From positions 1-44,790 of the IMG/VR virus record IMGVR_UViG_3300018056_000002: a stretch of DNA of 44,790 nucleotides, one strand, 5' to 3'. Source of the DNA: a virus. The position numbers and the translations under genes are program-made. This document shows, in pieces, positions 1 to 44,790 of the stretch. Under the pieces are notes generated by a model. That model did not search any database, was not told where the DNA came from, and was given only the letters and a program-made list of their open reading frames with translations. The first letter of the stretch is position 1. Each line of letters begins with the position of its first letter.

Positions 1-123
1 AAGAGCTCAATCGTGCGCGCGCCGGCCGGCCCGGCATAGCCGCGCGTCCCCTCTTGCACGAGGCCGCCGAGCTCGCGCACCAGGACCATCGTATTGAGGG
101 CCGCGCTGAGCGCGTCGCGGCCG
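1..123. repeat. Direct terminal repeat copy 1 (identical to 44668-44790)
   Basis: Compared base by base: aagagctcaatcgtgcgcgcgccggccggc...gcgtcgcggccg occurs at both ends of the window. Confidence 0.95.
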
Positions 124-3100
124 ACGTCCTTCACAAACTCCTCGAGGTCGTCGCCGTCCGACTTCCCGAACAGGCGACTTAAGGCGACCGCGCCGACCGC
201 CGGCATCACGTAGAGCAGGGACAGATGGCCGAGGAAGGTCGCGACCGACGCCGGCGATTTGAAATTGGTCGCGCCGGCCTCGCGCGCCGTCGCGTTGAAA
301 ATCGTATTGCCGTAGCTGTAGAAGGTCAGGAACAGCCGCGCGACCGGACTCCCGCGCTGCACCTGCGCCAGGTCCTTGATCTGTCCGCCGCCTTGCGAGT
401 CGAGCACGGCCTGGTCGGCGAGGGCGATCGCGCGGGCTTCGTGCTCGCCGCTGGCCATTGATTTTTCGTACTGGCCGAGCCACGTCGGAATATCCGCGAC
501 GCGCTGCATCAGGCCGATGTGCCAGAGGTAGCTATCGAGGATCGTCTGCTGCGTGAGGGTGTCGAGGCTCACCGTCCGCACGAGCGCGTCGAACCAGCCG
601 CCGGGCTGCTGCAGCACTTTGCGGACGTCGCTCAAGTCCTGCGTCCCGGTCGTCACGCGCTCGCGCATCATCGGCGAGACGCTCGCGATCCAGCCGGCCG
701 TCGACTCCATCGACGCGCTGTCACGGAGCCAGCGGATCATCCCTTTCATGACCCACGTCGGCCCGACGCGGCTCATGCCGTTGAAGAGGCCGAGCGGCTG
801 CTGCGCGCCGGTCCACAGGTTGTAGCCCATCGCCGAGAGCTGCGTCCCGGTCCGCATGAAGGTCGCCGCCTTGTCGAGCGTCGAGATCGCCGGCTGGGTC
901 GACCCGATCGCGACGTCCTGCAGCAGCCGCGTGAACTGGTCGCGGACGAGGTCACCTTTCGTCTCGGTCAGCGCCGCCGACACCTGCCCGTCGCGCAAAA
1001 GCCGCGTCACGTCGATCAGCATCTCATGATGCGTCAGGTCATGGATGACCTGCTCGAGATGTTGGAAGACGACGCCGAGCTCGAGCCGGACCGGGAGCGT
1101 CACGTTCTGCTGACGCGCCTCGACGTGGCCGCGGCGCGTCGTCGAGCGGACATAGGACGCCGAGACGGCGAGCTTGGCCTCGGTCGCCGCGGCGTGCTGG
1201 CCGGCGCGCGCGGAGAGGCGCCCGTCGTAGGCGAGCGGGTAGTAGCCGCCGCGCTGCTCGCCGAACTTCGTCAGGACCGGGATCGCCTCGACCTTCTCCG
1301 GCGCGAGGCCCGTCACGCGCTGCTGCTTGGCGGCAATCTCGGGCCAGAAGGTATTGAGGTAATGCCATGTCGCTTGCACGAAGCGCCAGTCGCGCGCGTC
1401 GAGCGTGTCGAGAATCGCCTGTACCTGCGACCCGCTCCACTTGCGCGACGGATCCGCGAGCAGCCGGTCGCGGCTCGTCTGGTTGCCCCAATTCAGGGCG
1501 ACCGCGAGGCGGCCTTCTTTCGACAGACTGCCCTGGATCGCGGGGATGAACGTCTTCGTATTGAGCGTCGCGAGCTCGCGGCCAGGATAGTGCTCGGCAA
1601 GGATCGCCGTGTAGGCGGTGCCCGCCTCGCGCTTGCGCGTCGCTTCGGCGTCGGCTGCGGCGTTCAGCGGGCGGATGATCGCCTCCCACAGTGCGCCGCC
1701 GTCGACGTGGCCGTCGAGCGCGTGGACGAGCGTCGCGATCTTGGTGTGGCTGGCGAACCAATCGGCGACCTTGCGGTACTTCTCGTCTGCCGGCCGGAAC
1801 TCGAGCGGCATCGCGCGCGCCGTCGTGTGTTCCCGGATCGACGTCACCAGCCCGTCGCGCACGACGGCGAACTCCCGCGCGTCGGCCGCTTTTAAGAGCT
1901 TATTTTTCAGTCGCGCGAGATGCACGATCTGCGCGAGGCCGTCGGTAATGCCGACGAGCTCCTCGACCGTGACTTCCTGGTAGTTGATGCGCCGCGCATC
2001 GTTGAGCACCACCTCGGGCAGATCGTCGACCGGCAACCCTTCGCCCTCGAGCTCGGCGATCCACTTGCGGATCGCGGCCCGCCGCGCGAGCACCTTCGGC
2101 GCGACGGTCGCGAACTCGTAGCGGTCGAGAATGCCGTCGGCCTGGTCGAGATACCCAGCGCCGGCGAGGCCGAGCTGCTGCCGGGCGGGTCCCTTCCCGA
2201 GGGCCTGCGCCCGCGCCACGCGCGCCGCGACGTCTTCCATGACGCGCGCCGCTTCCCGGTAGAGCGCGAGGTTCATCAATTCCTGTTGCTTCGCGGCGAT
2301 CGCGCCGTCGACGTCCTGCCGGGCCGCGCTGTCGATCGCGGTCTGTGCCGCCCGCCGCGAGGCCGACCAGTAGAGCGCCGGCTTGACGGCCTGGATCTTC
2401 GTCTTCGCGATCCGGTCGCGGGCGAAGGCGCGGAGCACGGTCGCCGGCGGGAGGGCCGCCTGGATTCGCGCCGCGGCGCCGCGGGTCTGTTGCTTGAGAT
2501 GGCGGACCTGGTCGCGCAGCTCGTCGACCTCGACCTGCTTGCGTCCTTCGGCGATCGCGATCCGGAGCTTCGCTTCCGCCTCGAGCCAGCGGCGCTCGTA
2601 CGCGCGCTCCGGTTCGTCGACCGCCGCGGCGCTCGCGCGGGCGGTCTGCCGTTTCAGCGCGCCCAGCGCGGCCATCTCCTCGCGGATGACCTCCTCGCGG
2701 CCGTCGTTGGCGACCGCGGCCTGCGCCTTGGCGTGCAGCGTGCCGTCGAGGAGCAGACTCCCGTGCTCGGCGAGCATCCGGCGATCCGTCTCCTGTTGAA
2801 TCACGCCGCGCATCGCCGGCGCCGCGGTGATGGCGGTCAGGAGCTCGTCGGCGGAGGAGAAGCCGAACATCTCGGCGACGAGGGCCGGGTGGAACCCGCC
2901 CGTCACCGTGTAGAGGTACGGTTTGGGCAGCGCCTTGAGCCGCGCCTCGCCGAACTCGGCGACGAGGATCGCCCGCGAGAGCTTGAGCGGTTCCGGGGCG
3001 GCGCCTTCGGTCAGCGGCGAGCCGTCCGGGTTGGTGCCGCGCTGCATCGCCGCGAGCGCCCGGTAGACGGGTTGCTGATGGACGTCGGCGGCGACGGCCG

Positions 3101-6100
3101 CTTCGATCGTGGCGCGCGCGGCCTTCCATGCGGCCGTCTGTGCGCGCTGCACTTCGGCCAGCAGCTTGCGCTCGAGGGTTTCGCGCGCGAGCCGCGAGGC
3201 GTCCTGGACCTTCGCGGCGTAGCGGCTGAATGTCTGCTCGGACATCCCGGCCGCCGCCGCCGTCGTGAACATCGGTTGCACGCTGCCCGCTTGCTCCGCG
3301 TCGGCAATCGCCTGGTCGGTCGCGATCAGCCGGTCGAAGACGCCGCGCACCTCCGGCGACAGGTCCACCTTGAGCGATCGGAGCGACTTGTAGACGCCGA
3401 TCAGCCAGGCGCGGAAATTGGCGAACGCCGAGCGCAATTCGACGGACGGGGCCTTGCCCTCCATCAGGTAGGCTTCAAAGCCGCGCGCGAACTGTTCGTG
3501 CTGCGCGACGTCGATCGCCTGCCCGGTGTCGCCCTCGGGGAACAGCCACGCGCGCAGCGTCGTGAGGTCGCCGGCGATCGGCGGTGACGTCGGGGCGAGG
3601 TCCTGCAGCACCTCGAGGAAGAAATGTCCACTCTCGTGCAGGAAGGTCGAGAGGTCGGCGCGGGCGAAGAGGTTGATCGCGAATTGGCGATCGTCGCCGA
3701 AGGCGATCGAGCCGCGGCGCTCGGGCGTGTCGGCCGCGGCGGCGTTGGGCTGTTGGAAGAGGGCTTGCCCGCCGAGCACGGCGGTCCGGAGCTCGGGCGT
3801 CAGGGCGACCGCCGGCACCGTCACCGCCGCCGCGTGCTCCGCGATCCACGCCTCCGCGGCCGACCCGGACGCGAACACCGGCGCCGCGTCGATAAAGAGA
3901 TTCGTCCGGCGGTCAACCAAGCGCCAGCGTCCGCCGCCGACTTCGGTCAGGTCGTAGGGCGCGACGTCACCGGTTCGGAGGTCGACCGTCGCGACCTTGC
4001 CGCCGTTGCGCTTGACCGCGGGGAGCCCGTTGACGACGTTTTTGAAATCGACGTCATACAGGCGCTTGAGCCCTTCACCGCCGATCTTCAGATTCTCGCC
4101 GGCGAGACTGCGCTGCGGCTCGCTCTTCAGGTCAGCGTTCTGCCGGACCATCTCACCAGCGGCGTCTTCCTGACTGCCGTACGTGCCCATCAGCGTACCG
4201 TCCTGATACCGGATGCCCCATTGCGACCAGGAGCGCGACTCTGGCGTGTGCTCGGAGAGCGGCACTTCGACATAGTGCCCGGTGTCACCGCGGCCCCCCG
4301 CGCCCGCCTCGAACTCCACCGGCACGGCGCCGACGGCGTCACCTCGCGCGCGCAGTCGGGCCATCACGTCGCTTTCCTTGCGATCGCCTTCGCTCTGCTC
4401 GATCCGGTTGACGATCTCCTTGCCGACGAGCGCCTCGAGCTCCTTGAGCGTCGCGCCCATGCGCTCGGCTTGGTCGAGACTTCGGCCGTCTTTCCAGACG
4501 GTCAAGTTGTAGGTCCCATCTGCGCGCTTCGTGTAGCGGATCTCGTCGACCTGCTTCTCGAGTGAGTAGCGCGCCGCCTGCTGCTCACCGGTCGTCCATG
4601 CGACCGCGTCGAGGCCCTGCTCGGCGGCGTGGCGCAGCGCCCACTTGAAGCCGAGCTCGCGCCAGTTCTTCGTGAACAGCGCCGGCATCTTTTTTTGTTC
4701 GTCTTCGTGCGGCGGTTGGACCTCCTCGAGAAAGAGGACCCGCTGCCCGTCGACCGTCGTGCGCGTGTTCAGACGAATCCGGACGATCGGGTTCTCGATG
4801 TTGCTGTATTCCTCGTGTCCGTCCTCCCAGGTGCTCAGATGTCGGCGGCTCTGATGATGCGCCGTCCATTGCTCAAGCGCGTGCGGCACTTTCACGGTAT
4901 CCGCCTCTGCGGCGCCGACATAGAGCTTGCGCGGCTTGTCGTTCTCGAGCCAAGGCTTCCCGTTGACCGACACGGTATACGGAATCATGTTGCTGCCGGT
5001 CGGCTCGAACACCTGATCGACAGTAATAGTTGGCGGCGGCCCCGCAGTCGGATCGACCGGCGGCACCGTCAGGAACACTTCGCGGTAACTGCCAGGATCG
5101 CCGCCCGGCAGCACATATCTCGAATAACGGGTCTGGTCGGTACCATCCATCTCACGCTCAGCCTGTGCGAGGGCCTCGCCCCAATTGGCTGCGCTGCGGG
5201 CGTCCTCGAGCAGCAATTCGCGCCGTTTGTCCTCGAACGCCTCGCGGCGGTCCTCAACCGCGGCGTCGGCCGCCGCCTGCGCCTCGTCCTCGGTGTCGTA
5301 CCACTCGCCGAGGTCATCGCCGTCGACAGACGCCTCGTACTGCTGTTCGTCCTCGTCGAAGTGAATCGCGATCCGTCCATAGTCGTAGTGCGTGCCCTGC
5401 TCCTCGAGCCGGTCAACCTCGGCGTCGACCTCGGCGTCGTACAGCTCGGTCGCACGCACGTGGACAGCGTCCTTGTCCGGCCCCGCGTCGTCCTCGAGCG
5501 TCACGTCCTCGACCGTGACCGCGTTCGCCTGCAGATACTCGAGCACCTCCTGCCGGGTGTAGCTCCGGCCATCCTCGAGGTCGCCGACAGACGCGAGCGC
5601 GAACTCGTCTTTGTTGATCCCGATCTTCGCGTTGCGGATCGTCGCCTTCCACTGCGCGCCGCTCGCCTTCGCTTGCTTCGACTCTTCGACCGCACGGGTC
5701 AGCCGCGAGTAGAAGGTCGGCGCCGTAGACGCCGCCGCCGTCGGCTGCAGCACTTGAAACAGCGTCGTCTGTTTCACCTTCGCCTTTGCCGTCTCGCTCG
5801 TCAGGCTGAAGGGCGCCTCCATCGCCGGCGTCGCGACGTCCGTCTCGCGCACGGCGCCGACGTCGCCGGGAAGGCGCGGCTGCTGCTCGCCGGTGTCGAG
5901 GGTGTCGGCCTTGTCGACCTGTGCTGCCAGCCATCGCTCCCGCCCGGACAGGTCGGCGATGTGCTCGTCGATCTTGCTGAGTGTTGCTCGGGCCGCCTCT
6001 ATCGCCTCGTCTGGCGCGTCACTGACAATGCGCTCGAGCGCCTTGATCCGCTGCGTCCGCCAGGTCGCCAGCTTCGCGCGGACGTCCGCGAGGGTCGCCG

Positions 6101-9100
6101 CGAGTTGGCTCGCCATACCAGGCCCGCGCTCAGGCTCGCGCCCGATGCTCGCCTCATACGCCAGCAGTTGGTCCGCCTGCGACACCCGGCGCGGCTTGAG
6201 CGCCTGATCGAACTCCGTCACATCGAACGACGCATCGCCCTCGCCCTGATCGACCGCGTCGTCGAAGCCCTCCGACAGCGCCTCGATGAACGCCTCCGGC
6301 GCAACCGTCGCGTCCCGATGGGGCAGCGACACCTTCGACAGCAACGAGAAGTCGCCGGCGGCCCGCTGCTCTGCGACCCGGAGCACGCCTTCCTGCAGAT
6401 TGTTTGCGACGTCGGTCGTCGCCATCACGCCGCGGATGGCGGTGAGCACGGCCGCGCGGGTGCCGCGGGCCTGCTTGGCCGGTTTCCCGGCCTGCTTGCC
6501 GCGCTGCAGATTGACCGGCGACCACGCCAGCACGTCGTCATAGACCGGCGCGCCGGCGGCGCCTCCGGTGATGTCTGCGGACCCGCCGGCCGCGTTGCCC
6601 GTCTTCGGTCCCCCCTCCTCGATCCAGTTCCACGACTTACTGACGAAGGGAAAACTTTCCATCTCGTCGAGGATCCGCGCGAGCTCGCGATGGACCTCCG
6701 GCGTGAGACGCGCGCGGTTGGCTTCTAGGGAGTGTCGCTCGAAGACTTCGTCGACGTCGGGAAGTCCGGGGGTCGGTAGTCGGCCAGGATCAGCGCGGTC
6801 GTCAGCGCGTCCTGCTTCGACCAGCCCGCCCGCTTCAGCGTCAGGCTGTTCTGCAGGACGATCTGAAAGTCCTTGCCGGGTTTCAGGTGAATCTGTGGCA
6901 TCGGAAGCTGCTCCAGTCTGCGGTGTCGCAGGAGTCCTGTCAACGACCAATTCTGTCGGTGCCCACTTCGGCGACCGTTTGCGCGCTTCCTTGCGGTTTT
7001 TCAGTTGCACATCGGCGGTGTTGTAATCCGGGCCGATCGTGCCGCTGACGGAGACACTGACGCCATCAGTCGTGCGGGTGCCGACGAGAGCCTCGACACG
7101 GTTCCGGATCTGTTCGGCCACGCGCACGCCCGCGAGCACGGCAAACTCGTCGCCGCCGGTCCGAAACACCCGCTCGCCGAACCCGAACTCCGTCGCCGCC
7201 TGCTTGATGACCGCGGCAATGTCCTTCAGCGCGGTATCGCCGGCGACGTGCCCGACTTCGTCATTGAGCGCCTTGAAATTGTTCACATCGAAGGTGACAA
7301 ACGCCGTCTCAGGGTCGGCTTCCGCAGTCGCCTGCGCCCGTTCAAAGGCCGCGCGATTTGCCAGCCCGGTCAGCGGTTCGATGTCGGCAGTACGCTTGGC
7401 GTCGCGCAGTTCCGTCTCGAGCTGCTGAACATGCGCCTCCGATCCTCGCGCCGGAGCCTCCGCGGCTTGCGCAGGCATCGCCGCAGACGGCGCCGCCGGC
7501 GCCGCTGGCTGCGCCGCGACGGCGGCATCGGCGACAGCCGCGGCCTGCACATCAGGCCGCGCGATCGTGAGCCCGTAGCGCTCGTAGAGGGCCAAGGGGT
7601 CGAGGCCGGCGCGCGCCGCCAACGTGCCGAAGGTCGACTCGTAGAGTGTCGCGTAGCTCTCCGCGGTCGCTCGCGGCACGCCGGCCGCCTCGAGCTGCGC
7701 GAGCACCGCCACGCGCACCGGCGCCGCGGGCTCGGGCTCCGGCGTCGCAATCGCTTCCCCCGCAAGGTTGGCTTCGTACGCGGTCGCCTCGCGGACGTTC
7801 ATCTCGTCCGGACCGGCCCGGAGCTCGTTCACGAAAAACGCGTGATGGTCGGTGCCGGCGACCTTGGCGACGTAGCGCGCGGTCGGGATCGCGAGGTCCT
7901 GCCCGGTCGCCACGGCGGTCTGATACGACGCCGGATCGCCGGTGAGCTCCGCCGCCATCGCCGCCGGGTCGACGCCCTGTCCCTGCCAGTAGGTCGCGAA
8001 CGGGCCGACCGGCGCGTAGACGTGCTCGAGCGGGCCGCCCTTGACCGCCTGCGCGACGAGATCCTGCACCGCCTCCGGCGACCGCTGCAGCGTCTTCGAT
8101 TCACTGGCGGCCTCGCCCAGCTTCTCGAGGACGTGCGCCGTCGCGTGTGCGGCTGATGTCGTCGCGCCGACCGCGACGAGCGTGCTGATTGCGGTCGCGA
8201 CCATTGCGGACGGTTGCTCACGCGCGTAGTCGCCGAGCGTTTTCTCTTTATTCGACGGGAGCGCGGCCCATTCGCCGAGATTCTGCAACACCGTCGCGAC
8301 TTCTTCGGTCGCAATCTCTGGCACGATCTGCCCGATGAGAAGTTTCAGGAACGGGGTTTTCGCCGCGAGGCCGCCAAGGAGTTTCGTCGCCGGGATGTAT
8401 TCGGTCGCAACTTCCACCGCGCCCTGGAATCCGCCGAAGGCGAGCGATTTCTCGACGCCGACCCCTTGCTCGCGCGCCTGCGCGTAGGCTTGGCCGCCCG
8501 TGGTCACGCCGGCCACGCCGAGCATCGGCGCGGCGGACCCGCCCGTCAGCAGTGACAGCGCCAAACCGGGCGCCATCTGGCCGACTGACTCCACGCCGCC
8601 ATAGATGGATCGCTCGACGAAGCCGGCGCCGTGCTGCTCGCCGCGGGCTTTGTCGGCGAGGTATTTTGCGACCGCGGCACTGCCGCGCGCGAACTCGGCG
8701 ACGCGCGCGCTCACCGGCGTCGGCGGGATGAACGTCTCCCCGTCCCAGCGTCCGCCATCGTTGGCGCCTGTGGAGTACTTCGACTCGACCGAGAACGTCG
8801 GATGGCCGTGTTGCTTGTAGGTATCGGGAAAGTGCGGCCCATCCTCGTACGTTTTCCGCTGATCGCCGCCGGCGGAGGCGATGTCCTTCCAATAGCCGCG
8901 GTAGTCGTACTTGCTCTGTGGCGCATCGACATCGGTGATTTTGTTCGCGGTCACCCATGCCCGAAACGCCTGTTCGTCCTGTGGCGCAAGCGTGGTGACT
9001 TCCTTCGCGCCAGTCCCGACGACACCGGCCTGGAGTTCGTCGAGTGCGCTCACACTCTCCGCGCCCGCCTGAATCGCGCCCCAGGCGCCCGCTGAGAAGC

Positions 9101-9530
9101 CGGCGACGCCGGCTGACAGCGCGCCCGCGATGTTCCGGCCGATGCCGAGCGTGCGCTCGAGCGCGGACAGCGGCGTGTGATCGTCCTGCGCGACGGCAGC
9201 ATTCGACGGATTCGCGGCGAGCCATTCGCGGAGCCGCGGCGCCTCCTCGCCGACGCGCGACGCATCCTCGACCGTCGCGCGTTGCTTGAACGCCGTGAAG
9301 TTCTTCTCGACGATCGAGGGCGCCATCCCGAACCGATCGGCCAGCCGCCGCGCTTCGGCCGCCTGGTCCGGCGACTGCTGCCCGGCCTGCAGGACCGTCG
9401 TCCGCAGACGTGCGTCCTGCTCGGTCCGATGCTCACTGACGATGTCGTCGTAGGGGTTCGCGGCGGGCGTGGCGGTGGCCGGCTCGTCGGCGAGCTGCTC
9501 GACCGCGTCGTCGTAGGGGTTGAGCGCCAC
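1..9530 (-). CDS. Giant polyvalent virion/ejection protein, N-terminal 3,176 codons (runs off window start, continues at 44667->44466; 3,243 aa in total)
   Basis: The minus frame with codon first bases at coordinates equal to 2 mod 3 has no stop from about 9554 to 1. The ORF track lists no ORF in that frame here, as expected for an ORF with no stop inside the window. GTG start at 9530 overlaps the TAG of the upstream gene by 1 nt and is preceded by GGAAGGG. My translation reads VALNPYDDAVEQLADEP...; YDYRGYW...HPTFSVES (aa 208-247); GGDEF domain (aa about 711-837); FYSRLTRAVEE...; RVLFLEEVQPPHEDEQKK...WTTGEQQAARYSL; IGGEGLKRLYDVDF; FLHESGHFFLEVL (aa 1965-1969 HExxH); HEQFARGFEAYLMEGKAPS. These motifs are typical of large polyvalent proteins of phages and conjugative elements. 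The position, after the internal virion proteins, matches the T7 gp16 slot. Confidence 0.85.
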   Translation of the reverse strand, partial: MALNPYDDAVEQLADEPATATPAANPYDDIVSEHRTEQDARLRTTVLQAGQQSPDQAAEARRLADRFGMAPSIVEKNFTAFKQRATVEDASRVGEEAPRLREWLAANPSNAAVAQDDHTPLSALERTLGIGRNIAGALSAGVAGFSAGAWGAIQAGAESVSALDELQAGVVGTGAKEVTTLAPQDEQAFRAWVTANKITDVDAPQSKYDYRGYWKDIASAGGDQRKTYEDGPHFPDTYKQHGHPTFSVESKYSTGANDGGRWDGETFIPPTPVSARVAEFARGSAAVAKYLADKARGEQHGAGFVERSIYGGVESVGQMAPGLALSLLTGGSAAPMLGVAGVTTGGQAYAQAREQGVGVEKSLAFGGFQGAVEVATEYIPATKLLGGLAAKTPFLKLLIGQIVPEIATEEVATVLQNLGEWAALPSNKEKTLGDYAREQPSAMVATAISTLVAVGATTSAAHATAHVLEKLGEAASESKTLQRSPEAVQDLVAQAVKGGPLEHVYAPVGPFATYWQGQGVDPAAMAAELTGDPASYQTAVATGQDLAIPTARYVAKVAGTDHHAFFVNELRAGPDEMNVREATAYEANLAGEAIATPEPEPAAPVRVAVLAQLEAAGVPRATAESYATLYESTFGTLAARAGLDPLALYERYGLTIARPDVQAAAVADAAVAAQPAAPAAPSAAMPAQAAEAPARGSEAHVQQLETELRDAKRTADIEPLTGLANRAAFERAQATAEADPETAFVTFDVNNFKALNDEVGHVAGDTALKDIAAVIKQAATEFGFGERVFRTGGDEFAVLAGVRVAEQIRNRVEALVGTRTTDGVSVSVSGTIGPDYNTADVQLKNRKEARKRSPKWAPTELVVDRTPATPQTGAASDATDSPETRQGLSDRPAEQPDAEAGGLVEAGRADDRADPGRLPTPGLPDVDEVFERHSLEANRARLTPEVHRELARILDEMESFPFVSKSWNWIEEGGPKTGNAAGGSADITGGAAGAPVYDDVLAWSPVNLQRGKQAGKPAKQARGTRAAVLTAIRGVMATTDVANNLQEGVLRVAEQRAAGDFSLLSKVSLPHRDATVAPEAFIEALSEGFDDAVDQGEGDASFDVTEFDQALKPRRVSQADQLLAYEASIGREPERGPGMASQLAATLADVRAKLATWRTQRIKALERIVSDAPDEAIEAARATLSKIDEHIADLSGRERWLAAQVDKADTLDTGEQQPRLPGDVGAVRETDVATPAMEAPFSLTSETAKAKVKQTTLFQVLQPTAAASTAPTFYSRLTRAVEESKQAKASGAQWKATIRNAKIGINKDEFALASVGDLEDGRSYTRQEVLEYLQANAVTVEDVTLEDDAGPDKDAVHVRATELYDAEVDAEVDRLEEQGTHYDYGRIAIHFDEDEQQYEASVDGDDLGEWYDTEDEAQAAADAAVEDRREAFEDKRRELLLEDARSAANWGEALAQAEREMDGTDQTRYSRYVLPGGDPGSYREVFLTVPPVDPTAGPPPTITVDQVFEPTGSNMIPYTVSVNGKPWLENDKPRKLYVGAAEADTVKVPHALEQWTAHHQSRRHLSTWEDGHEEYSNIENPIVRIRLNTRTTVDGQRVLFLEEVQPPHEDEQKKMPALFTKNWRELGFKWALRHAAEQGLDAVAWTTGEQQAARYSLEKQVDEIRYTKRADGTYNLTVWKDGRSLDQAERMGATLKELEALVGKEIVNRIEQSEGDRKESDVMARLRARGDAVGAVPVEFEAGAGGRGDTGHYVEVPLSEHTPESRSWSQWGIRYQDGTLMGTYGSQEDAAGEMVRQNADLKSEPQRSLAGENLKIGGEGLKRLYDVDFKNVVNGLPAVKRNGGKVATVDLRTGDVAPYDLTEVGGGRWRLVDRRTNLFIDAAPVFASGSAAEAWIAEHAAAVTVPAVALTPELRTAVLGGQALFQQPNAAAADTPERRGSIAFGDDRQFAINLFARADLSTFLHESGHFFLEVLQDLAPTSPPIAGDLTTLRAWLFPEGDTGQAIDVAQHEQFARGFEAYLMEGKAPSVELRSAFANFRAWLIGVYKSLRSLKVDLSPEVRGVFDRLIATDQAIADAEQAGSVQPMFTTAAAAGMSEQTFSRYAAKVQDASRLARETLERKLLAEVQRAQTAAWKAARATIEAAVAADVHQQPVYRALAAMQRGTNPDGSPLTEGAAPEPLKLSRAILVAEFGEARLKALPKPYLYTVTGGFHPALVAEMFGFSSADELLTAITAAPAMRGVIQQETDRRMLAEHGSLLLDGTLHAKAQAAVANDGREEVIREEMAALGALKRQTARASAAAVDEPERAYERRWLEAEAKLRIAIAEGRKQVEVDELRDQVRHLKQQTRGAAARIQAALPPATVLRAFARDRIAKTKIQAVKPALYWSASRRAAQTAIDSAARQDVDGAIAAKQQELMNLALYREAARVMEDVAARVARAQALGKGPARQQLGLAGAGYLDQADGILDRYEFATVAPKVLARRAAIRKWIAELEGEGLPVDDLPEVVLNDARRINYQEVTVEELVGITDGLAQIVHLARLKNKLLKAADAREFAVVRDGLVTSIREHTTARAMPLEFRPADEKYRKVADWFASHTKIATLVHALDGHVDGGALWEAIIRPLNAAADAEATRKREAGTAYTAILAEHYPGRELATLNTKTFIPAIQGSLSKEGRLAVALNWGNQTSRDRLLADPSRKWSGSQVQAILDTLDARDWRFVQATWHYLNTFWPEIAAKQQRVTGLAPEKVEAIPVLTKFGEQRGGYYPLAYDGRLSARAGQHAAATEAKLAVSASYVRSTTRRGHVEARQQNVTLPVRLELGVVFQHLEQVIHDLTHHEMLIDVTRLLRDGQVSAALTETKGDLVRDQFTRLLQDVAIGSTQPAISTLDKAATFMRTGTQLSAMGYNLWTGAQQPLGLFNGMSRVGPTWVMKGMIRWLRDSASMESTAGWIASVSPMMRERVTTGTQDLSDVRKVLQQPGGWFDALVRTVSLDTLTQQTILDSYLWHIGLMQRVADIPTWLGQYEKSMASGEHEARAIALADQAVLDSQGGGQIKDLAQVQRGSPVARLFLTFYSYGNTIFNATAREAGATNFKSPASVATFLGHLSLLYVMPAVGAVALSRLFGKSDGDDLEEFVKDVGRDALSAALNTMVLVRELGGLVQEGTRGYAGPAGARTIEL
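3624..3638 (-). other. HExxH zincin-like metallopeptidase motif (HESGH) in the giant protein
   Basis: CAC GAG AGT GGA CAT on the minus strand, in the context ADLSTFLHESGHFFLEVLQDL, followed by HEQFARGFEAYLMEGKAPS. This module recurs in polyvalent proteins. Confidence 0.55.
6725..6901 (-). CDS. Embedded 58-aa ORF in an alternative frame inside the giant ORF
   Basis: ATG at 6901 is preceded by GGAG 9 nt upstream, with TAG stop at 6725-6727. Peptide: MPQIHLKPGKDFQIVLQNSLTLKRAGWSKQDALTTALILADYRPPDFPTSTKSSSDTP. Third-position G+C is 51/58 codons (88%) in this frame, against roughly 50% in the giant-ORF frame over the same bases. Confidence 0.5.
   Translation of the reverse strand: MPQIHLKPGKDFQIVLQNSLTLKRAGWSKQDALTTALILADYRPPDFPTSTKSSSDTP
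7020..7400 (-). other. GGDEF (diguanylate cyclase) domain within the giant protein
   Basis: Translation: DIEPLTGLANRAAFERAQ...AFVTFDVNNFKALNDEVGHVAGDTALKDIAAVIKQAATEFGFGERVFRTGGDEFAVLAG...VSVSGTIG...ADVQLKNRKEA. GGDEF is encoded at 7143-7157 (aa 792-796). All hallmark blocks are present: LTGLxNR, DxxxFKxxNDxxGHxxGD and RxGGDEF. There is no RxxD I-site five residues upstream. Confidence 0.8.
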
Positions 9531-11239
9531 TAGCCGCCCTTCCGGCCCTGACTCTTAAGCCAGATGGTCAGCACGGCCTCATCGGTCACCGTCTGCCCGT
9601 GGCGCTTGAGGGCGTCGGCGATCTGCGTCCGGTCCGTCGCCGGGACATCGGCCGCCGTCGCCGTCATGATCGAGCGCGTGGTGTCTGACGAGAACCAGCC
9701 GCCCTTATCGGTGATCTGATGCGCGAGCAGACGGTTGGCGATAGCCTCGACGTCGTCGTTCGTCGCTTTCTTTTTCGTGACGTCCTGCACGCGGCGGACT
9801 TCGGCGGCGACCAGGCCGCGGAACCGTGCGACCCGTTTCAGCCCTTCCGCGTCGGTGTCCTTGGGTTTGGGGTCGAGGCCCGCGAGGGTGAGCGCGTTGT
9901 CGATCACGCCGCTCTCGGTCCGGAAATCGTCGAGCTCCTTGTCCGCTTTCTTCGTGTCGCCCGCGCGCATCGCCCGCTGCAGGGTGTCGAGATGCTTGTA
10001 GTCGTTCTCGTCGAGTTTCCCCATCAACGGGCGGAGGTTGAGCGTGACGAAGTTCGCCGGTTCCTTTTCCGCCTGGTCGAGCATCGTGTAGTAGGCGACT
10101 TCGTCGGACTTGCGCGGCACGCCGCGCGCGAGGTCCTGCGAAAAGTTGGTGAGGCCCGGCAGATGCCGACCGAGTTTGACTTGCTCCGACGCCGTGAGGC
10201 TCGAGAGGTCGCCCCCGTTCTGTTTCAGCCGCGCGTAGACGGTATCGAGCAGGGACTCGTCGGCCTCCCGCTCACTCGCTTTCCGTTGCGCGTCGAGATG
10301 CTCGAGGCGCCGCTGCGCATCGTCCCGGACGTCGCCCTCGGCCTGCGCCTTCACCTTCGCGAGCTGCTCGGTCAGCGTGCCGCCTTCCGCGCTGATCGTG
10401 TCCGCGAGCTTCTGGCCGTCGGCCTTCGTCTGCCCGACCTTCAGCATGTCCGTGACGCGCGCGCGCGCTTTCGGGTCGGTAATCTCAGCGCCCTTCTCCT
10501 CAAAGTAGACGCGTGCCTCCATCGTCAACTTATCGTCAAGGAGTCGCTCGATCACCGCCGTGTGCGTCGCGCTCTGCATGTCGCCGACTTTCTTCGCGAC
10601 GACTTCCGGTGACCAGCCTTGCGGCTTGGCCGAGAGCTGGATCGCCGTGATGCCCTTGTGGAGCTCGACCCCGACCCGCCGCGGGTCGCTCGCATTCGCG
10701 ACGGCGGACTCGTAGGCGGTTTCGACGGTCGCCTGCACGACGCCGGCGTCATACTCTTGCTTCTCGCGGAACGTATGCCGGTAGAGGGTCCCGTTGAGGT
10801 TCTGCGCGTGCTGGGCTCGAATGCGTTTGGCTTGCGCGAGCTGCCGCGGGTTCATCCCCTGTTCATGGGCATCCGCGATTTGGTCAAACTCGCCGAGGAC
10901 CTGCTCGGGGAGGACCATCGCGTCCTTCCCTTTTACCGTCAGCGCGCCCGTCTCCGGATCGTAGACACGCTTATTGCCCCATTGGCCGAGCGCCGTGTCG
11001 TATTCCATCGCGGCGACGTCGTCGGCCCGCTTCCGTTCCTCCGCTTCCATCTCCGCGATCTGCCGGGTCGCGATGTGCGTGACGGTCGCGCCGAGCTCGC
11101 CGATGGCCTGCGCCTGGCGACCCTGCGCCTCGGCGAGGCCGGCGCCCATCGACGTGGCCGTCTCGGCCGCGGACTTGCGCACACCGGGGAGCGCCTCGGT
11201 GACGACCTTACGTTGACCGTAGCGACTGACCGTCGGCAT
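9530..11239 (-). CDS. Internal virion / ejection protein (569 aa, helical)
   Basis: ORF track. Natural composition with coiled-coil-like repeats. Lies between a small internal virion protein and the giant protein in a podovirus-type order. Confidence 0.6.
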   Translation of the reverse strand: MPTVSRYGQRKVVTEALPGVRKSAAETATSMGAGLAEAQGRQAQAIGELGATVTHIATRQIAEMEAEERKRADDVAAMEYDTALGQWGNKRVYDPETGALTVKGKDAMVLPEQVLGEFDQIADAHEQGMNPRQLAQAKRIRAQHAQNLNGTLYRHTFREKQEYDAGVVQATVETAYESAVANASDPRRVGVELHKGITAIQLSAKPQGWSPEVVAKKVGDMQSATHTAVIERLLDDKLTMEARVYFEEKGAEITDPKARARVTDMLKVGQTKADGQKLADTISAEGGTLTEQLAKVKAQAEGDVRDDAQRRLEHLDAQRKASEREADESLLDTVYARLKQNGGDLSSLTASEQVKLGRHLPGLTNFSQDLARGVPRKSDEVAYYTMLDQAEKEPANFVTLNLRPLMGKLDENDYKHLDTLQRAMRAGDTKKADKELDDFRTESGVIDNALTLAGLDPKPKDTDAEGLKRVARFRGLVAAEVRRVQDVTKKKATNDDVEAIANRLLAHQITDKGGWFSSDTTRSIMTATAADVPATDRTQIADALKRHGQTVTDEAVLTIWLKSQGRKGG

Positions 11240-11782
11240 CTACTTGTAACCGTATTTCGCGGAATAGAGATTGGCGCCTTGCGCCAGCAGATTGCTCGCG
11301 CCGAGGATATACGCGGCGTTCGCGTTCGCTTTGCCGGCCGCCTCGAGGTTGACGCCTTCCTTGCGCATGATCGCCGCGCGGCGCCGGGAGTCTTCCGCCT
11401 GCACTTTGTAGCCCCAGCTCTCGCGCGCCGCATTGGTCCGGATCGTGATCGCGTCGAGCTCGCCGAGGAAGGCGACGTCGGCCTGCACGTCGACCGCGCT
11501 GCCGTAACCGACGTCGATGTTGCCGGCGGCGAAGCCGGTGCGCTGCGCGCCGATCATCCCGCGCACGCCGGTCCGAAAGCGGGACTCCTCCTCCGCGCCG
11601 CGCGCGACGGCGTCCTCCGCCTGCACCTCGGCGACTTCGGCGTTGTAATCCGCAAGGCCGGCGGAACTATCGGCGGCGCCCTTCTGTGCCTGCCCGGCTT
11701 TTTTCGTGGCCGACCCCTGCTTGTACGCCCCGTAGGCGGACATCGCGAGGCCGGCGAGCGCGATCGCGGTCATCGCAGCCAC
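11240..11782 (-). CDS. Internal virion protein (180 aa)
   Basis: ORF track. N-terminal hydrophobic segment, then ...RTGVRGMIGAQRTGFAAGNIDVGYGSAVDVQADVAFLGELDAITIRTNAARESWGY, a pattern I associate with podovirus internal virion proteins. Confidence 0.55.
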   Translation of the reverse strand: MAAMTAIALAGLAMSAYGAYKQGSATKKAGQAQKGAADSSAGLADYNAEVAEVQAEDAVARGAEEESRFRTGVRGMIGAQRTGFAAGNIDVGYGSAVDVQADVAFLGELDAITIRTNAARESWGYKVQAEDSRRRAAIMRKEGVNLEAAGKANANAAYILGASNLLAQGANLYSAKYGYK

Positions 11783-12117: not shown

Positions 12118-12289
12118 GGTCGCAACTCTCCTCGCCTTCGTCAGTGACCGGCGTATCAATTCCCAAGGACGCCGCAATGTGCATCATACCGAGTGCCTGC
12201 ACCACAGCATGAGCCCCGTATCTGTCAACGAGCGGACCGAGCAATTCGCCGCGGTCGCGTTCGCAACGGATCTCTTCGTCTAACGTCAT
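12110..12289 (-). CDS. Hypothetical protein (59 aa)
   Basis: The real-looking C-terminal part of the R-rich ORF 12110..13066. ATG at 12289 overlaps the TGA of the upstream 740-aa gene by 1 nt. MTLDEEIRCERDRGELLGPLVDRYGAHAVVQALG... Confidence 0.45.
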   Translation of the reverse strand: MTLDEEIRCERDRGELLGPLVDRYGAHAVVQALGMMHIAASLGIDTPVTDEGEESCDHV

Positions 12290-14511
12290 CAGCCTCCCGC
12301 TTCGACATTGGGAATCACGGCAAGCACCGTCAGCGGGAGCGGCTCCGTCTGCCGGATGACGATCCGCCCGTTGTCGTTGTAACGCGCCGTCAGCCGCATC
12401 TCGACGGGGCCGGTGTACTGATCGCTCGCCGCCTCGTAGGGCGGACGCACGTACTGCGTCAGATGCGCGGTGTCTGGCCCCGCCCAGAGCACCCGCGAGC
12501 TCGCGTCGAGGAGGATCGTCACGCTGCCGACCCGTTTCTTTTTGTCGCGAATGCTCGACCCTTGGACGTCGAGATCGAGCGTCTCGAAGTCCGCGAAGCG
12601 AATCGCGAGCCCCGCGTGGATCACGCTGTAACTCCCCGGCAGCGCCACGGGGAGCGTGCCCGCCGTGACCGTGAAGTTCGCGGCGTTGGCCGCGGCCGGG
12701 TCGCCGTTGAAGACCACCGCCCCGTCGCCGACGACCGCGACCACCTGGCCGTTCAGGTGCGCGAGGCCCGCGATGTTCGACACGGGCGCGCCGTTGTAGG
12801 TCAGGCCCGAGTCGACGAAGAACGCGTCGAGGTCGAAGGTCGCCGGCAGGAGGGTGCGCCGCTCCAGCCGTTCGATATACCGCTTGAACACGCCGCCGAT
12901 CGTGCGCCTGACGATCACGTAGAGCGCATCTTCCCCGACCTCCGGCACGACACAGACATGCTCGACGCGCCCGGCCGCGCCCGTGTCGTGCCGATGCCAG
13001 CCCCAGATCTCCTGTTCCCGGATATAGGTGAGGCCGAGCAGCGTCCCGTCCGAGCGGACCGCCCACACAATCGAGTGCGGCGTCTGCTGGTAGTCGATCT
13101 CGGTCAGCGTATAGCCGTCCATCAGATGCGCCGCGAAGAGCGAGAGGTCGCGCCCGGCGAGCCCTTCGACCTGTTGGTCGAATTGCAGATCGCGCAAGAT
13201 GGCGCCGCGGGCCTGCACATAAAGGATCGAGTTGCCGACAATGACCGGCGGCGCCTCATTCGCGCCGACATAGGTTTCCTGGTCGGCCGGGAGATAGCTC
13301 GGGGTCAGCGGCACCTTCGGTTCGCCGACCGTCCACTCGCCCGCGCCGGTCATGACGTTCAGAGTCTTCAGCGCGACCAGATGGCGGACTGGGTTGTGAT
13401 TGTTGCCCGCGATCCGAAAGTTCAGCGAGTCATCATCCTGCAGCGGAGAGCTGATCCCGAAGTTCGACGGGAAGCCCGTGCGCGAGGCCCAGACCGCGTC
13501 AGGCTCGTCGTTGGTGTAGGCGAAGAAGCGCCGCTGCTGATGGTAGGCGGCGACGTTCGGGTACGTGTCCGTGGCGGCAAAGAGCACGCGCGCAACGGGC
13601 GGCGTCAACGCGAAGTCCGGGTCGATCCCGGGGTCGTTGAACGTCGCGGCCCCGGTCGCCGTTCCAATGAAGCCGTACGTGCCGTTCCCCCACGGGTCGC
13701 CATAGACGTAGTATTCGACGGCGCCGGCGACGGGCGTCCACGTCAACACGTTCGGCGCGGCCGGCGTGGGCGTCGCGCACGCGCCGTTGATCGCCTGGTT
13801 GCTCGCGGCCGACTCTTCGTAGGTGTCCGCCATCGCCGCCGTCACGACATAGCCCATCGTCCGCGCGCCCGCGCCCCCTGGCACGAAGCCGAGGCCGCTC
13901 GGGGCGGTGACAGTGCTCGCCGTCGTGATCGCCCGCAGAATCCAGCGGGTCAAGGTGAGGAAGACAAGCTCGTAGGGCGCCTCATCCTTGTGCGTCAAGG
14001 TGATCGTGCGCCCGCTCTGCACCCAATGCATCAGATGCGTAAACGGCGTCGGCACTTCGTAGACGAGGCCGGTGAACGGATGCCAGGTCGGGGCGTCCGG
14101 CGGCGCGACGGCGACGTTGTCGACGATCGCGTAGTAGACGATCCCGGCGTCCTGCACGAGATCCCCCTGCACGAAATTGGTCGCGATGTCCCACGCGGCG
14201 ACGGTGCCCAGATCCACGGTGAGCGGTGCGCCGTTTATGAAAAAGCGCAGATACCCGACCCCTTCCTCGACGAGCACGCTCTCGCCGGCGATCTCCGACA
14301 CGTAGCGCCGGAGCTGCACGGTCGCGCTGGTCGTTTTGCACGCGCTGATAAACCGCAGCCCGGCGCGGTTCGCCACGCCGCCGTGCCGCTGCACGAGGAA
14401 GTTGCGACAGGTGCGCAGCGCCTGCTGATACTTCGCCGTGTCGGCGCGGGCCGCCAGCGCGGGCGCAATCTCGCCCGACGCGAACGACCGCTGCATGACG
14501 GACTCGCCCAT
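12289..14511 (-). CDS. Tail tubular protein B / nozzle-like protein (740 aa)
   Basis: N-terminus MQRSFASGEIAPALAARADTAKYQQALRTCRNFLVQRHGGVANRAG matches the conserved start of podovirus gp12-like (stabilisation/nozzle) proteins. Size and position also fit. The start may instead be the second Met at 14496. Confidence 0.65.
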   Translation of the reverse strand: MGESVMQRSFASGEIAPALAARADTAKYQQALRTCRNFLVQRHGGVANRAGLRFISACKTTSATVQLRRYVSEIAGESVLVEEGVGYLRFFINGAPLTVDLGTVAAWDIATNFVQGDLVQDAGIVYYAIVDNVAVAPPDAPTWHPFTGLVYEVPTPFTHLMHWVQSGRTITLTHKDEAPYELVFLTLTRWILRAITTASTVTAPSGLGFVPGGAGARTMGYVVTAAMADTYEESAASNQAINGACATPTPAAPNVLTWTPVAGAVEYYVYGDPWGNGTYGFIGTATGAATFNDPGIDPDFALTPPVARVLFAATDTYPNVAAYHQQRRFFAYTNDEPDAVWASRTGFPSNFGISSPLQDDDSLNFRIAGNNHNPVRHLVALKTLNVMTGAGEWTVGEPKVPLTPSYLPADQETYVGANEAPPVIVGNSILYVQARGAILRDLQFDQQVEGLAGRDLSLFAAHLMDGYTLTEIDYQQTPHSIVWAVRSDGTLLGLTYIREQEIWGWHRHDTGAAGRVEHVCVVPEVGEDALYVIVRRTIGGVFKRYIERLERRTLLPATFDLDAFFVDSGLTYNGAPVSNIAGLAHLNGQVVAVVGDGAVVFNGDPAAANAANFTVTAGTLPVALPGSYSVIHAGLAIRFADFETLDLDVQGSSIRDKKKRVGSVTILLDASSRVLWAGPDTAHLTQYVRPPYEAASDQYTGPVEMRLTARYNDNGRIVIRQTEPLPLTVLAVIPNVEAGG

Positions 14512-24616: not shown

Positions 24617-24898
24617 CTAGTAGCCCACCAGACTTTTCGGCGCGAGGACCGCGGGCGGATTGATGCCGGCGCCAGTTGGTTGGCCGGTCACGAGCGTCGA
24701 CGCGGCGCCGCGCTTGCGCGCGCGCTTGGCCGCCAAGAGCGCCTCGGCGGTCGCGTTCGACCTGGTCTGACTGGCATCGGGCGGCGCCAGGCCGCCCAGC
24801 AGACTCGCCGGCGCGACCGGCGGCGGCGACTTCAAGCCTTTCCCCGGCGGCAGCGCGCCCTTGGTGACGGAATTTTGCGAGCCGAACCACGCCATCAC
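24617..24898 (-). CDS. Hypothetical protein (93 aa, P/A/G-rich)
   Basis: ORF track. ATGA overlap with the upstream GNAT gene. Ends ...ASTLVTGQPTGAGINPPAVLAPKSLVGY. Confidence 0.45.
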   Translation of the reverse strand: MMAWFGSQNSVTKGALPPGKGLKSPPPVAPASLLGGLAPPDASQTRSNATAEALLAAKRARKRGAASTLVTGQPTGAGINPPAVLAPKSLVGY

Positions 24899-34863: not shown

Positions 34864-34944
34864 CTTGTTGTGCTGAACAGCCATTCTTCCTTCCCCACGG
34901 CGCCTCATGTTGCTCCGCACGACGTCGGCCCGAACAATCCCGAC

Positions 34945-40327: not shown

Positions 40328-40363
40328 TTCCAGAGCGTCAGGGTTTTCCAGAGCGTCAGGGTT
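40328..40363. repeat. Perfect 18-bp tandem duplication (TTCCAGAGCGTCAGGGTT x2)
   Basis: Read directly in the gap between the exonuclease stop (40362-40364) and the next start (40324). The second unit overlaps the TAA stop. Confidence 0.85.
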
Positions 40364-44049: not shown

Positions 44050-44469
44050 TCAGACATCCTTCTTTTTCCGCCGGTCGATGGCGGGCGCTTCCGCGGGACG
44101 GTCCGAGGCCCGGAGCTTCAGCAAGCCCGTCAAGACGGCAATGGTTTTCCGGTCCTCTTCGCCCGATGCCATCAACCGGGTAATCTCCGCGGTCATGCGG
44201 GCCAGATGTCCGTTGGTTTGCTGGGCGGCCTGCGCGCTGGTTTGCACGATGGCGTCCACATTCGCCGCGACGGCTTCCGCTTTCGCGGCCACGCCGATCG
44301 CCTTCGTCGCCGCGGCCGCGACCTGTTGCTTTGTCTCGATGGTGACGGCCGTGTTCTCCTCGACCTTGCCCTTGATCTTGAATTGCTGCACGAGTCCGGT
44401 CAGCATCGTCCCGAGCGACGCGATGATCAGGAGGACCCCACCCACCCACAGCGGATCATCAAACTTCAT
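44050..44469 (-). CDS. N-terminally membrane-anchored coiled-coil protein (139 aa; holin or i-spanin-like candidate)
   Basis: MKFDDPLWVGGVLLIIASLGTMLTGLVQQF is one TM helix, followed by an Ala/Gln-rich helical region and a basic tail. ATGA overlap with the stop of the giant gene. Confidence 0.5.
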   Translation of the reverse strand: MKFDDPLWVGGVLLIIASLGTMLTGLVQQFKIKGKVEENTAVTIETKQQVAAAATKAIGVAAKAEAVAANVDAIVQTSAQAAQQTNGHLARMTAEITRLMASGEEDRKTIAVLTGLLKLRASDRPAEAPAIDRRKKKDV

Positions 44470-44790
44470 CGCGCGCCTTTCTTCGGCGCCCCGAACAGGA
44501 GCGCCGCGGGGTTACTGGTCCGCCCTTCCTGGAGCGCGACAAACCCATCGACGGTCCGCTGCACCTGCCCCGCGGGATAGCGGAAGAGCACACCCGCCGC
44601 CTGGTTGAGCGCCTTGACGAGCCCTTCGTCGATGGCGCCTTGTTTCGCCTGTTTGCCCAGGTTGTAAAAGAGCTCAATCGTGCGCGCGCCGGCCGGCCCG
44701 GCATAGCCGCGCGTCCCCTCTTGCACGAGGCCGCCGAGCTCGCGCACCAGGACCATCGTATTGAGGGCCGCGCTGAGCGCGTCGCGGCCG
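44466..44790 (-). CDS. C-terminal end of the giant polyvalent virion protein (same gene as 1-9530, joined through the terminal repeat)
   Basis: ORF-track entry 44466..44756 (MVLVRELGGLVQEGTRGYAGPAGARTIELFYNLGKQ...) is in the same phase (2 mod 3) as the ORF leaving position 1. The peptide ...NTMVLVRELGGLVQEGTRGYAGPAGARTIEL is encoded at both ends of the window. TGA stop at 44466-44468. Confidence 0.85.
   Translation of the reverse strand, partial: GRDALSAALNTMVLVRELGGLVQEGTRGYAGPAGARTIELFYNLGKQAKQGAIDEGLVKALNQAAGVLFRYPAGQVQRTVDGFVALQEGRTSNPAALLFGAPKKGAR
44668..44790. repeat. Direct terminal repeat copy 2 (identical to 1-123)
   Basis: Same 123-nt string as 1-123. The repeat lies inside an ORF and keeps its frame (44,667 is divisible by 3), which fits an assembly overlap of a circular or permuted genome. 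Confidence 0.95.

Follow-up and report, generated by a model that had tools for sequence, protein, structure and literature searches.

Introduction

Bacteriophages can deliver ready-made enzymes into the cell together with their genomes, and the virion RNA polymerase of N4, DarB of P1 and the ADP-ribosyltransferase Alt of T4 are all injected in this way and act before any phage gene is expressed. To our knowledge these three act on nucleic acids or proteins, and none of them makes a second messenger. Here, we describe a phage genome (IMG/VR record IMGVR_UViG_3300018056_000002, positions 1 to 44,790; the whole of this 44,790-bp stretch is referred to below as the window) in which a GGDEF domain of the diguanylate cyclase type is embedded in a giant protein of 3,243 amino acids (aa), encoded in the virion-structural gene cassette. 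We consider it probable that this is an internal-core protein of the family of Bbp10 of Bordetella phage BPP-1, with the GGDEF domain in its effector slot, and that it is injected as an active synthase of cyclic di-GMP (c-di-GMP).

GGDEF domains have been described in polyvalent proteins for which entry into the cell together with phage or plasmid DNA was predicted, with interference with host nucleotide signalling as the proposed outcome (Iyer, Burroughs, Anand, de Souza & Aravind 2017, J Bacteriol 199:e00245-17, PMC5512222; hereafter Iyer et al. 2017), Acetonema longum WP_004096050.1 being one example. An initial reading of the window made from its letters alone (the sequence-only reading) had taken a cyclase fused into an injected virion protein to be an undescribed strategy, which the 2017 study contradicts; the window is a real case of a computationally predicted design, and a well-supported candidate rather than a discovery. 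What it adds is a complete podovirus genome with a GGDEF domain in a core protein at the position of T7 gp16, together with comparative evidence that suggests an interchangeable effector slot in Bbp10-family proteins and points to a large, compact GGDEF clade, free of the RxxD inhibitory site (I-site), that appears to alternate between stand-alone genes and polyvalent proteins.

A GGDEF domain within a giant phage protein

The giant open reading frame (ORF) runs along the minus strand from a GTG at 9530, which overlaps the TAG of the upstream gene by 1 nt, and stays open to position 1 (1..9530), giving 3,176 codons in the linear window with a G+C content at third codon positions (GC3) of 0.86. 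It crosses the circular junction of the genome: once one copy of a 123-bp repeat is removed and the genome is circularised, the last 67 codons and the stop lie at 44466..44667 (stop at 44466-44468) and the protein is exactly 3,243 aa long. The length given in the sequence-only reading is thus exact for the circular genome and exceeds what the linear window encodes.

The intact GGDEF domain that had been recognised from its motifs was found in this frame and at the same positions, with LTGLANR (aa 720-726) starting at 7373 on the minus strand, FDVNNFKALNDEVGHVAGD forming aa 747-765 and containing GHVAGD, which starts at 7253, and FRTGGDEF at aa 789-796, the GGDEF signature (aa 792-796, motif scan) occupying exactly 7157-7143. 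Pfam family PF00990 matches aa 717-833 when the whole protein is searched (E = 2e-16, 60.6 bits) and matches the excised region with E = 2.8e-18 (66.6 bits; gathering cut-off 23.8 bits), and 48 diguanylate cyclase sequences match the domain in a PDB sequence search at E ≤ 1e-3. Structure prediction, which had been proposed as a check on the domain, supports the assignment: the AlphaFold2 model of aa 697-860, built from 27 sequences, has a mean predicted local distance difference test (pLDDT) score of 94.2 and a predicted template modelling score (pTM) of 0.85, and consists of a leading helix followed by a beta-alpha-alpha-beta-beta-alpha-beta-beta-alpha arrangement. Foldseek matches the model to WspR, Caulobacter DgcB, SadC, SiaD and PleD (E from 1e-11 to 1e-8, probability 1.00, template modelling (TM) scores 0.6-0.76), the top matches being the coiled-coil-GGDEF constructs 3i5c and 6ttr. 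An origin of the motif by chance or artefact was considered, and is ruled out by the E values of 1e-16 to 1e-18 together with the pLDDT-94 fold.

On the combined evidence of Pfam, PDB search, AlphaFold2 and Foldseek, the compact catalytic domain extends over aa 716-852 (6975..7385) and is entered by a predicted 'stalk' helix at aa 698-715 (7386..7439; model residues 2-19, pLDDT >90), so that the 7020-7400 of the sequence-only reading covers most of the domain. Low-complexity linkers lie on either side, N-terminally at aa 653-697 (7440..7574) and C-terminally at aa 853-922 (6765..6974); they are Ala/Pro-rich and Asp/Glu/Pro-rich, as would be expected for a releasable or flexibly tethered cargo domain.

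The key active-site residues are present (D748, K753, N756, D765, R790, G792-G-D-E-F796, K847 and K851), and their metal, guanine and phosphate roles are assumed here by assignment from PleD. We take D748, K753 and R790 to be the counterparts of PleD D327, K332 and R366, N756 and D765 to be those of N335 and D344 (the guanine-specifying pair), G792-G-D-E-F796 to be that of the PleD GGEEF signature and K847 to be that of K442; K851 presumably stands at the position of R446, with Lys replacing Arg. The FKALND and GHVAGD motifs are canonical in the window copy, and the C-terminal 'AD..L...K...K' helix is kept in the compact domain. In the alignment to TpbB, GFGE (aa 783-786; 7173..7184) stands opposite RESD, and the RxxD I-site is therefore absent, as had been noted from the same four residues; the alignment of the wider clade (below) agrees. 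The description of the cyclase as feedback-insensitive is sound as far as the missing primary I-site goes, and would hold for that site only. Together, the sequence comparisons and the model indicate a complete GGDEF domain with intact catalytic residues and guanine-type specificity residues, and the predicted stalk helix and the expected oligomeric context suggest that it could homodimerise.

Relationship to Bbp10 and the stretch between the conserved blocks

BLASTP aligns the giant protein with BPP-1 Bbp10 and with gp040 of Caulobacter phage SR18 (E = 0) in two blocks. Block A (aa 269-680; 7491..8726) is common to both, is 28-32% identical to them and holds two glycine-rich hydrophobic segments (aa 324-342 and aa 443-461). 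Block B (aligned over aa 1908-3240 with 35% identity, E = 0) is homologous to Bbp10 aa 778-2047; it comprises aa 1908-3176 at 1..3809 and continues to aa 3243 at 44469-44667, with a hydrophobic segment at aa 3099-3121. The family phrog_9880 matches with E = 0 (1,193.8 bits) and covers aa 5-670, 1937-2304 and 2340-3159, and a PDB sequence search with the N- and C-terminal blocks returned nothing meaningful. Ahead of block A lies an LPD22 domain, a marker of polyvalent proteins that Iyer et al. 2017 defined (aa 45-128; 9147..9398; Pfam E from 2e-18 to 3e-19, cut-off 28.6 bits).

The two blocks are separated by ~170-180 aa in Bbp10 and SR18 gp040, compared with ~1,230 aa in the window protein, where the GGDEF domain opens the insertion, 22% into the chain. 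According to Pfam, this slot holds PBECR1, a barnase/EndoU/colicin-E5/RelE-like nuclease, in BPP-1 Bbp10 (L008; aa 643-729), the ADP-ribosyltransferase (ART) family ART-PolyVal in SR18 gp040 (L007; aa 575-740), GGDEF (aa 617-752) and then ART-PolyVal in a 3,319-aa IMG/VR relative (L015:8195-18151), and GGDEF (aa 717-833) and then ~1,050 aa of modules lacking an assignment in the window; LPD22 is at the N-terminus in all four. At least seven distinct Bbp10-like giants have the order block A, GGDEF, block B (L009/L010/L011, L015, L020 (matched by L075), P0157, P0159, P0172 and P0218), and because 19 other Bbp10-like giants in bacterial genomes are without GGDEF, the domain is optional cargo. These comparisons indicate that the stretch between the blocks is an interchangeable effector slot in the Bbp10 family.

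Within block B, HESGH (aa 1965-1969; 3624..3638) forms an HExxH motif in the family-wide consensus 'STFLHE[ST]GHF' and is followed ~50 aa C-terminally by a conserved QHE, both of which are kept in Bbp10, SR18 gp040 and 14 other family giants. No Pfam peptidase match was obtained for this region; the family-wide conservation of the motif fits the zincin-like self-processing theme of Iyer et al. 2017, and the module is a candidate zincin-like self-processing peptidase. With its length of 3,243 aa, its LPD22 domain, its unrelated effector domains (GGDEF and the HExxH module) and a repertoire that varies among homologues, the protein has the characteristics of a polyvalent protein, the type that the sequence-only reading had proposed; it is a Bbp10 homologue encoded at the gp16 position of the virion-structural cassette.

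The rest of the variable insertion (aa 923-1907; 3810..6764) includes a conserved module at aa 1256-1730. For aa 860-1907, searches of Pfam, PHROGs and PDB sequences gave no match; homologues were found and none is annotated, so that ~1,000-1,050 aa of cargo carry no functional assignment. The module at aa 1256-1730 (4341-5765) is 52-70% identical to L020 and has homologues in P0268-P0279, one of them with ART-PolyVal; its AlphaFold2 model is mediocre (pLDDT 67), and Foldseek returned weak GNAT-acetyltransferase-like matches only (E ≥ 0.013). GC3 is 0.78 in the GGDEF module (6975-7439) and 0.79-0.83 in the insertion that follows, versus 0.86-0.91 in the conserved blocks, which is compatible with later acquisition of the cargo.

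A compact GGDEF clade without the RxxD site

A profile built from the window domain and the ten homologues closest to it matched 427 clusters at E ≤ 1e-30 in a search of 1.84 billion representative proteins. The 158 clade sequences that were examined (the best 150 profile matches, the first close homologues and the window) fall into 81 stand-alone proteins of <400 aa, 69 proteins of 800-6,158 aa and 8 of intermediate size. Both size classes show little or no variation at D748, N756, D765, R790, GGDEF and K847; D765 is retained in 145 of the 150 sequences that belong to one class or the other (≥800 aa or <400 aa), and K851 in ~86% (59/69 embedded, 69/81 stand-alone); this near-invariance of the catalytic residues in both classes argues for selection on catalysis. 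RxxD is absent throughout the 158, the clade consensus at its position being G-[VF]-G-E. About two-thirds of the clade have F-G-x-x-N-K in place of the canonical F-K-x-x-N-D (window aa 753 and 757), and in these members the Lys appears to have moved by four positions.

Among giants of ≥1,500 aa, the domain starts at a median of 23% of the length (22% in the window). Seventeen GGDEF giants were scanned with Pfam, and their partner domains comprise LPD22 (in 5), LPD38 (3), ART-PolyVal (2), SNF2 helicase (2), and a Sno-type AAA_34 helicase, a Zeta toxin and a 2H phosphoesterase (1 each); judged by these matches, the partners are the polyvalent repertoire, and the polyvalent Pfam families of Iyer et al. 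2017 also accompany this GGDEF clade. One 2,385-aa member (P0121) has two compact GGDEF copies in tandem (aa 804-959 and 980-1169), which could give an intramolecular dimer.

The stand-alone members, the closest of which are ~167-250 aa long, occur on phage-like contigs, where their neighbours are RusA, DNA methylase and small unknown genes, and the closest metagenomic ones are 48-58% identical to the window domain. A ~190-aa Response_reg gene (L001:5641-6216, L004:8636-9202 and equivalents in L002, L005 and L006) was observed on the same strand, 0.8-3.8 kb upstream of the closest stand-alone GGDEF genes, and the two may form a split PleD-like phage signalling pair. A member is also present in a cultured phage, Pseudomonas phage WP2 of P. 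aeruginosa: WP2_064 (154 aa, phrog_5594; L098:8878-9342) is annotated as hypothetical, lies directly upstream of an 'anti-restriction protein' gene and is ~33% identical to the window domain over the aligned part. The PHROGs labels of these stand-alone families, including phrog_5594, read 'unknown function', and a few phage GGDEFs are named as such in UniProt/BFVD.

Position of the giant gene in the virion cassette

The minus-strand operon has the order small terminase, large terminase, portal, protease, major capsid protein, a 1,222-aa tail protein, a 740-aa tail protein, a small phrog_825 protein, a 180-aa gp14-like protein, a 569-aa protein with transglycosylase matches and, as both the last and the largest gene of the cassette, the giant gene. 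The 740-aa tail protein (12289..14511, minus strand; phrog_376) is the counterpart of Bbp13, which has been listed as tail tubular protein B (Hardies et al. 2016), and marks the start of the ejection cassette. The 180-aa protein (11240..11782, minus strand) is a T7 gp14-like internal virion protein that matches Pfam T7_gp14 over its full length (E = 8.8e-6); at 26.2 bits the match is just under the cut-off of 27, and it anchors the synteny of the ejection cassette. The 569-aa internal virion protein (9530..11239, minus strand), an analogue of Bbp11 and of the muralytic T7 gp15-16, has matches to transglycosylase and 'endolysin' PHROGs.

Comparison with the T7 and epsilon15 maps and with BPP-1 shows that the window order mirrors T7 gp12 to gp16 and BPP-1 bbp13-bbp12-bbp11-bbp10. 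RefSeq describes the products of BPP-1 bbp12 as an internal virion protein, of bbp11 as transglycosylase-bearing and in the structural cassette, and of bbp10 (2,052 aa) as 'part of the structural protein cassette', and Hardies et al. 2016, using customised methods, list Bbp10 among the divergent homologues of gp16, which is internal virion protein (IVP) D of T7. In the Cp2-like phage PhiXacm4-11, a syntenic 2,300-aa protein, gp35, has been proposed as a candidate core protein (2026 preprint), and the Cp2 protein is ~30% identical to the C-terminal 1,000 aa of the giant. From this synteny and homology and the literature on relatives, we infer that virions contain the giant protein, that ejection carries it into the cytoplasm and that its cyclase is active.

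In the 1,222-aa ORF (14874-18542, minus strand), only the last ~200 aa match a tail family, phrog_394, and neither Pfam nor PHROGs gave a match for the ~1,000 aa before them; by its sequence this would be a fusion of unusual size at the tail-adaptor/tube-A position. The portal and large-terminase genes are separated by a gene for a GNAT acetyltransferase of 153 aa (24895-25356, minus strand; Pfam E = 3.7e-10).

Genome completeness and phage type

The window has a G+C content of 67.7%, and its positions 1-123 and 44668-44790 are identical, forming a 123-bp direct repeat at the two ends; with one copy removed, the genome is a circle of 44,667 bp. The same genome is found, independently permuted, as ENA ERZ27268075 k141_1023319, which is 44,808 bp long (44,667 plus a 141-nt assembler overlap), shares the integrase of the window and includes a called gene of 3,243 aa whose annotation lists LPD22 and GGDEF. 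The terminal repeat and the permuted contig together establish the window as a complete circular phage genome, the 123-bp repeat being the assembly overlap of a circular genome and not a proven physical terminal repeat.

Elsewhere in the genome, a lysogeny and recombination module (29707-30855 and 31074-31988, minus strand; 34870-35475 and 38052-39341, plus strand; 40362-41902, minus strand) comprises C5-cytosine and N6/N4 DNA methyltransferases, a CI-like HTH_3 repressor, a tyrosine integrase, a YqaJ exonuclease and an ERF annealase. Because integrase, CI-like repressor, ERF and YqaJ are all present, the phage is temperate, and the window is the genome of a temperate BPP-1-like podovirus. No near-identical phage record was found in the database search; in the host search the best genome match was a contig of a Steroidobacteraceae metagenome-assembled genome, with 51% identity, and the window's own contig, a circular metagenome contig of 44.8 kb, has no host flanks. 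Among the scanned ORFs of the genome, a search for c-di-GMP effectors or phosphodiesterases found no PilZ, EAL or HD-GYP domain.

Discussion

In the mechanism we favour, a few copies of the giant protein would be packaged in the capsid core, would leave through the tail at infection by unfolding and then refolding, and would deliver the cargo part to the cytoplasm, perhaps once the putative zincin-like domain of the same protein has cut the chain. Two GGDEF domains would pair via an oligomeric ejectosome and/or the stalk helix and would convert 2 GTP to c-di-GMP, by proposal without product inhibition because RxxD is missing, and c-di-GMP would climb ahead of any phage gene expression. A typical cyclase turns over ~0.1-1 times per second (to an order of magnitude); a handful of dimers could add ~micromolar c-di-GMP to a cell-sized volume within minutes, a rise that is plausible but would be marginal against active host phosphodiesterases. 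The host would be driven to a sessile state in which type IV pili and flagella are switched off and matrix is produced, and the phage would gain by excluding competing phages and/or by resetting host physiology. That competitors are excluded by shutting down pili and flagella is our favoured, speculative guess, drawn by analogy because other phages raise host c-di-GMP by other means, such as YIP peptides binding YfiN (PMC8085984), because PlzR, which blocks the assembly of type IV pili, is induced by c-di-GMP (PMC11461919), and because PhiXacm4-11 infects through type IV pili (preprint); as the phage is temperate, the cyclase might just as well influence the lysogeny decision or the behaviour of lysogens. 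In its widest form, to which we give somewhat less than even confidence, the proposal is that a phage-specific 'mini-GGDEF' lineage shuttles between stand-alone genes and the gp16-position slot and is injected here as a constitutive, feedback-free cyclase that raises host c-di-GMP in the first minutes, independently of phage transcription.

Several observations weigh against this proposal. A profile of block B (18 sequences) compared with single sequences by hhalign gave no significant match to T7 gp16 (E = 0.23; the C-termini are co-linear in the alignment), to epsilon15 gp17 (E = 0.41) or to T7 gp15 and epsilon15 gp16, so that the label 'ejection protein' rests on synteny and on the published analyses of others. 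Direct virion evidence was found for no member of the Bbp10 family, the window protein included: the literature search returned nothing usable on Bbp10 or Cp2 virion proteomics, and the PhiXacm4-11 preprint gives 15 of the 18 structural-cluster products as detected, a set to which gp35 may or may not belong. The muralytic (transglycosylase) part of T7 gp16 sits in the periplasmic ejectosome tunnel (preprint); with that topology, a domain that starts 22% into the chain need not reach the cytoplasm, the only compartment that supplies GTP. The expected copy number per virion is low (~3 in the annotation of T7 gp16), and a GGDEF enzyme must dimerise. The domain itself is shortened, with Pfam profile coverage of 3-128 of 161, reduced loops and an absent terminal beta-strand, and it has Lys at the PleD R446 position; moreover, no assayed member of the compact clade was found. 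Stand-alone genes from non-structural phage regions are among the closest homologues, which indicates that virion delivery is not required for the function of the family.

The stand-alone homologues are also what gives some weight to the idea that the cyclase acts in the producing cell, being made late and synthesising c-di-GMP before packaging or from unpackaged surplus, whether to keep pili or flagella from capturing progeny or to tune lysis and lysogeny; the fusion would then reflect late co-expression and nothing more. Such ~167-250-aa homologues, which phage contigs and WP2 encode in regions of the non-structural, replication or early type, suggest that cytoplasmic expression suffices, and the access of an ejected giant protein to cytoplasmic GTP would depend on its topology. 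However, the same slot holds PBECR1 or ART in relatives, and the clade also occurs in polyvalent proteins with SNF2/methylase anti-restriction modules, a pattern that is best explained by delivery at entry (Iyer et al. 2017); the disordered linkers flanking the domain and the conserved HExxH domain likewise fit release after ejection. We therefore regard action confined to the producing cell as unlikely and keep injection of an active cyclase as the preferred explanation.

A further alternative is a different chemistry, in which cyclic GMP-AMP (cGAMP), cyclic di-AMP or a linear pppGpG-type product would jam, decoy or prematurely trigger cyclic-oligonucleotide-based antiphage signalling (CBASS) or type III CRISPR systems. 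Interference with host responses that use similar nucleotides was suggested by Iyer et al. 2017, a 2H phosphoesterase is co-cargo in a related giant, and the F-G-x-x-N-K variant in two-thirds of the clade indicates that active-site chemistry varies. The window copy, by contrast, has the canonical FKALND and GHVAGD motifs and the N756/D765 pair, with D765 kept almost throughout the clade (145/150), which makes another product quite improbable here. Hypr GGDEF enzymes, which make cGAMP, carry Ser in place of the guanine-specifying Asp. Degenerate GGDEF domains that serve as receptors are common, and they lose the signature and the metal ligands. A catalytically dead domain, retained in the capsid core to bind nucleotides or to act as a structural or spacer module, would suit the shorter-than-canonical length and partial profile coverage, but every catalytic position is intact and near-invariant in the 158 sequences, the only element missing is the receptor-type RxxD, and BPP-1 and SR18 lack GGDEF, which is thus not structurally required; we consider this the most improbable of the alternatives and return to the injected c-di-GMP synthase.

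If that proposal is true, the phage could rewrite a global second messenger that governs motility, pili, matrix and cell cycle before it expresses a gene, with consequences for superinfection exclusion, receptor display and biofilm behaviour, and the giant protein would be the first demonstrated virion-delivered second-messenger synthase and give the 2017 prediction its first experimental footing. The compact ~137-aa, I-site-free GGDEF is predicted to be a natural minimal, constitutive cyclase and is a possible tool, the slot of the Bbp10 family (GGDEF, ART or RNase) resembles a modular effector delivery site, and WP2_064, in a cultured phage, is a tractable experimental model.

Comparison with known systems

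The literature search found no experimental test of a virion-borne or phage-encoded GGDEF. Like the polyvalent proteins of Iyer et al. 2017, the window protein is a giant multi-domain phage protein with LPD-type domains, in its case a putative zincin-like motif, and GGDEF among unrelated effectors. Their example combines GGDEF with SNF2, methylase and ART in a Firmicute prophage, whereas the window has a Bbp10/gp16-position scaffold in a high-GC temperate podovirus, and the domain that they considered 'not very widespread' is found here in 427 clusters, with 69 of the 158 sequences examined lying inside proteins of ≥800 aa.

The nearest relatives by scaffold are BPP-1 Bbp10 (NP_958679) and SR18 gp040 (genus Rauchvirus), which share both blocks, LPD22, HExxH and the gene position, but are ~2,000 aa long and have the slot without GGDEF. 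By arrangement, the cassette resembles T7 gp14-gp15-gp16 (IVP-B, -C and -D) in lying after tail tubular protein B and before the tail-fibre region and in consisting of a gp14-like protein, a transglycosylase-bearing protein and a very large last protein; unlike T7 gp16, the window protein is 2.5 times larger, has its muralytic domain on the neighbouring protein and carries predicted cytoplasm-directed enzymatic cargo.

As an enzyme, the domain resembles WspR, C. crescentus DgcB, PleD and TpbB/YfiN in fold (TM 0.6-0.76), catalytic motifs and N-terminal stalk-like helix, and differs from these canonical cyclases in having no sensor or receiver, no RxxD and no C-terminal strand, and in being embedded in a virion-cassette protein. 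Among phage GGDEFs, the metagenomic stand-alone genes and phrog_5594/WP2_064 share its compact lineage, while those of Bordetella phage CN1 and of Bacillus phages G (gp350) and SP-15 match it by fold only, at 20-32% identity; in contrast to the window domain, the stand-alone phage GGDEFs are separate small proteins that are encoded in non-structural regions and are not virion-borne.

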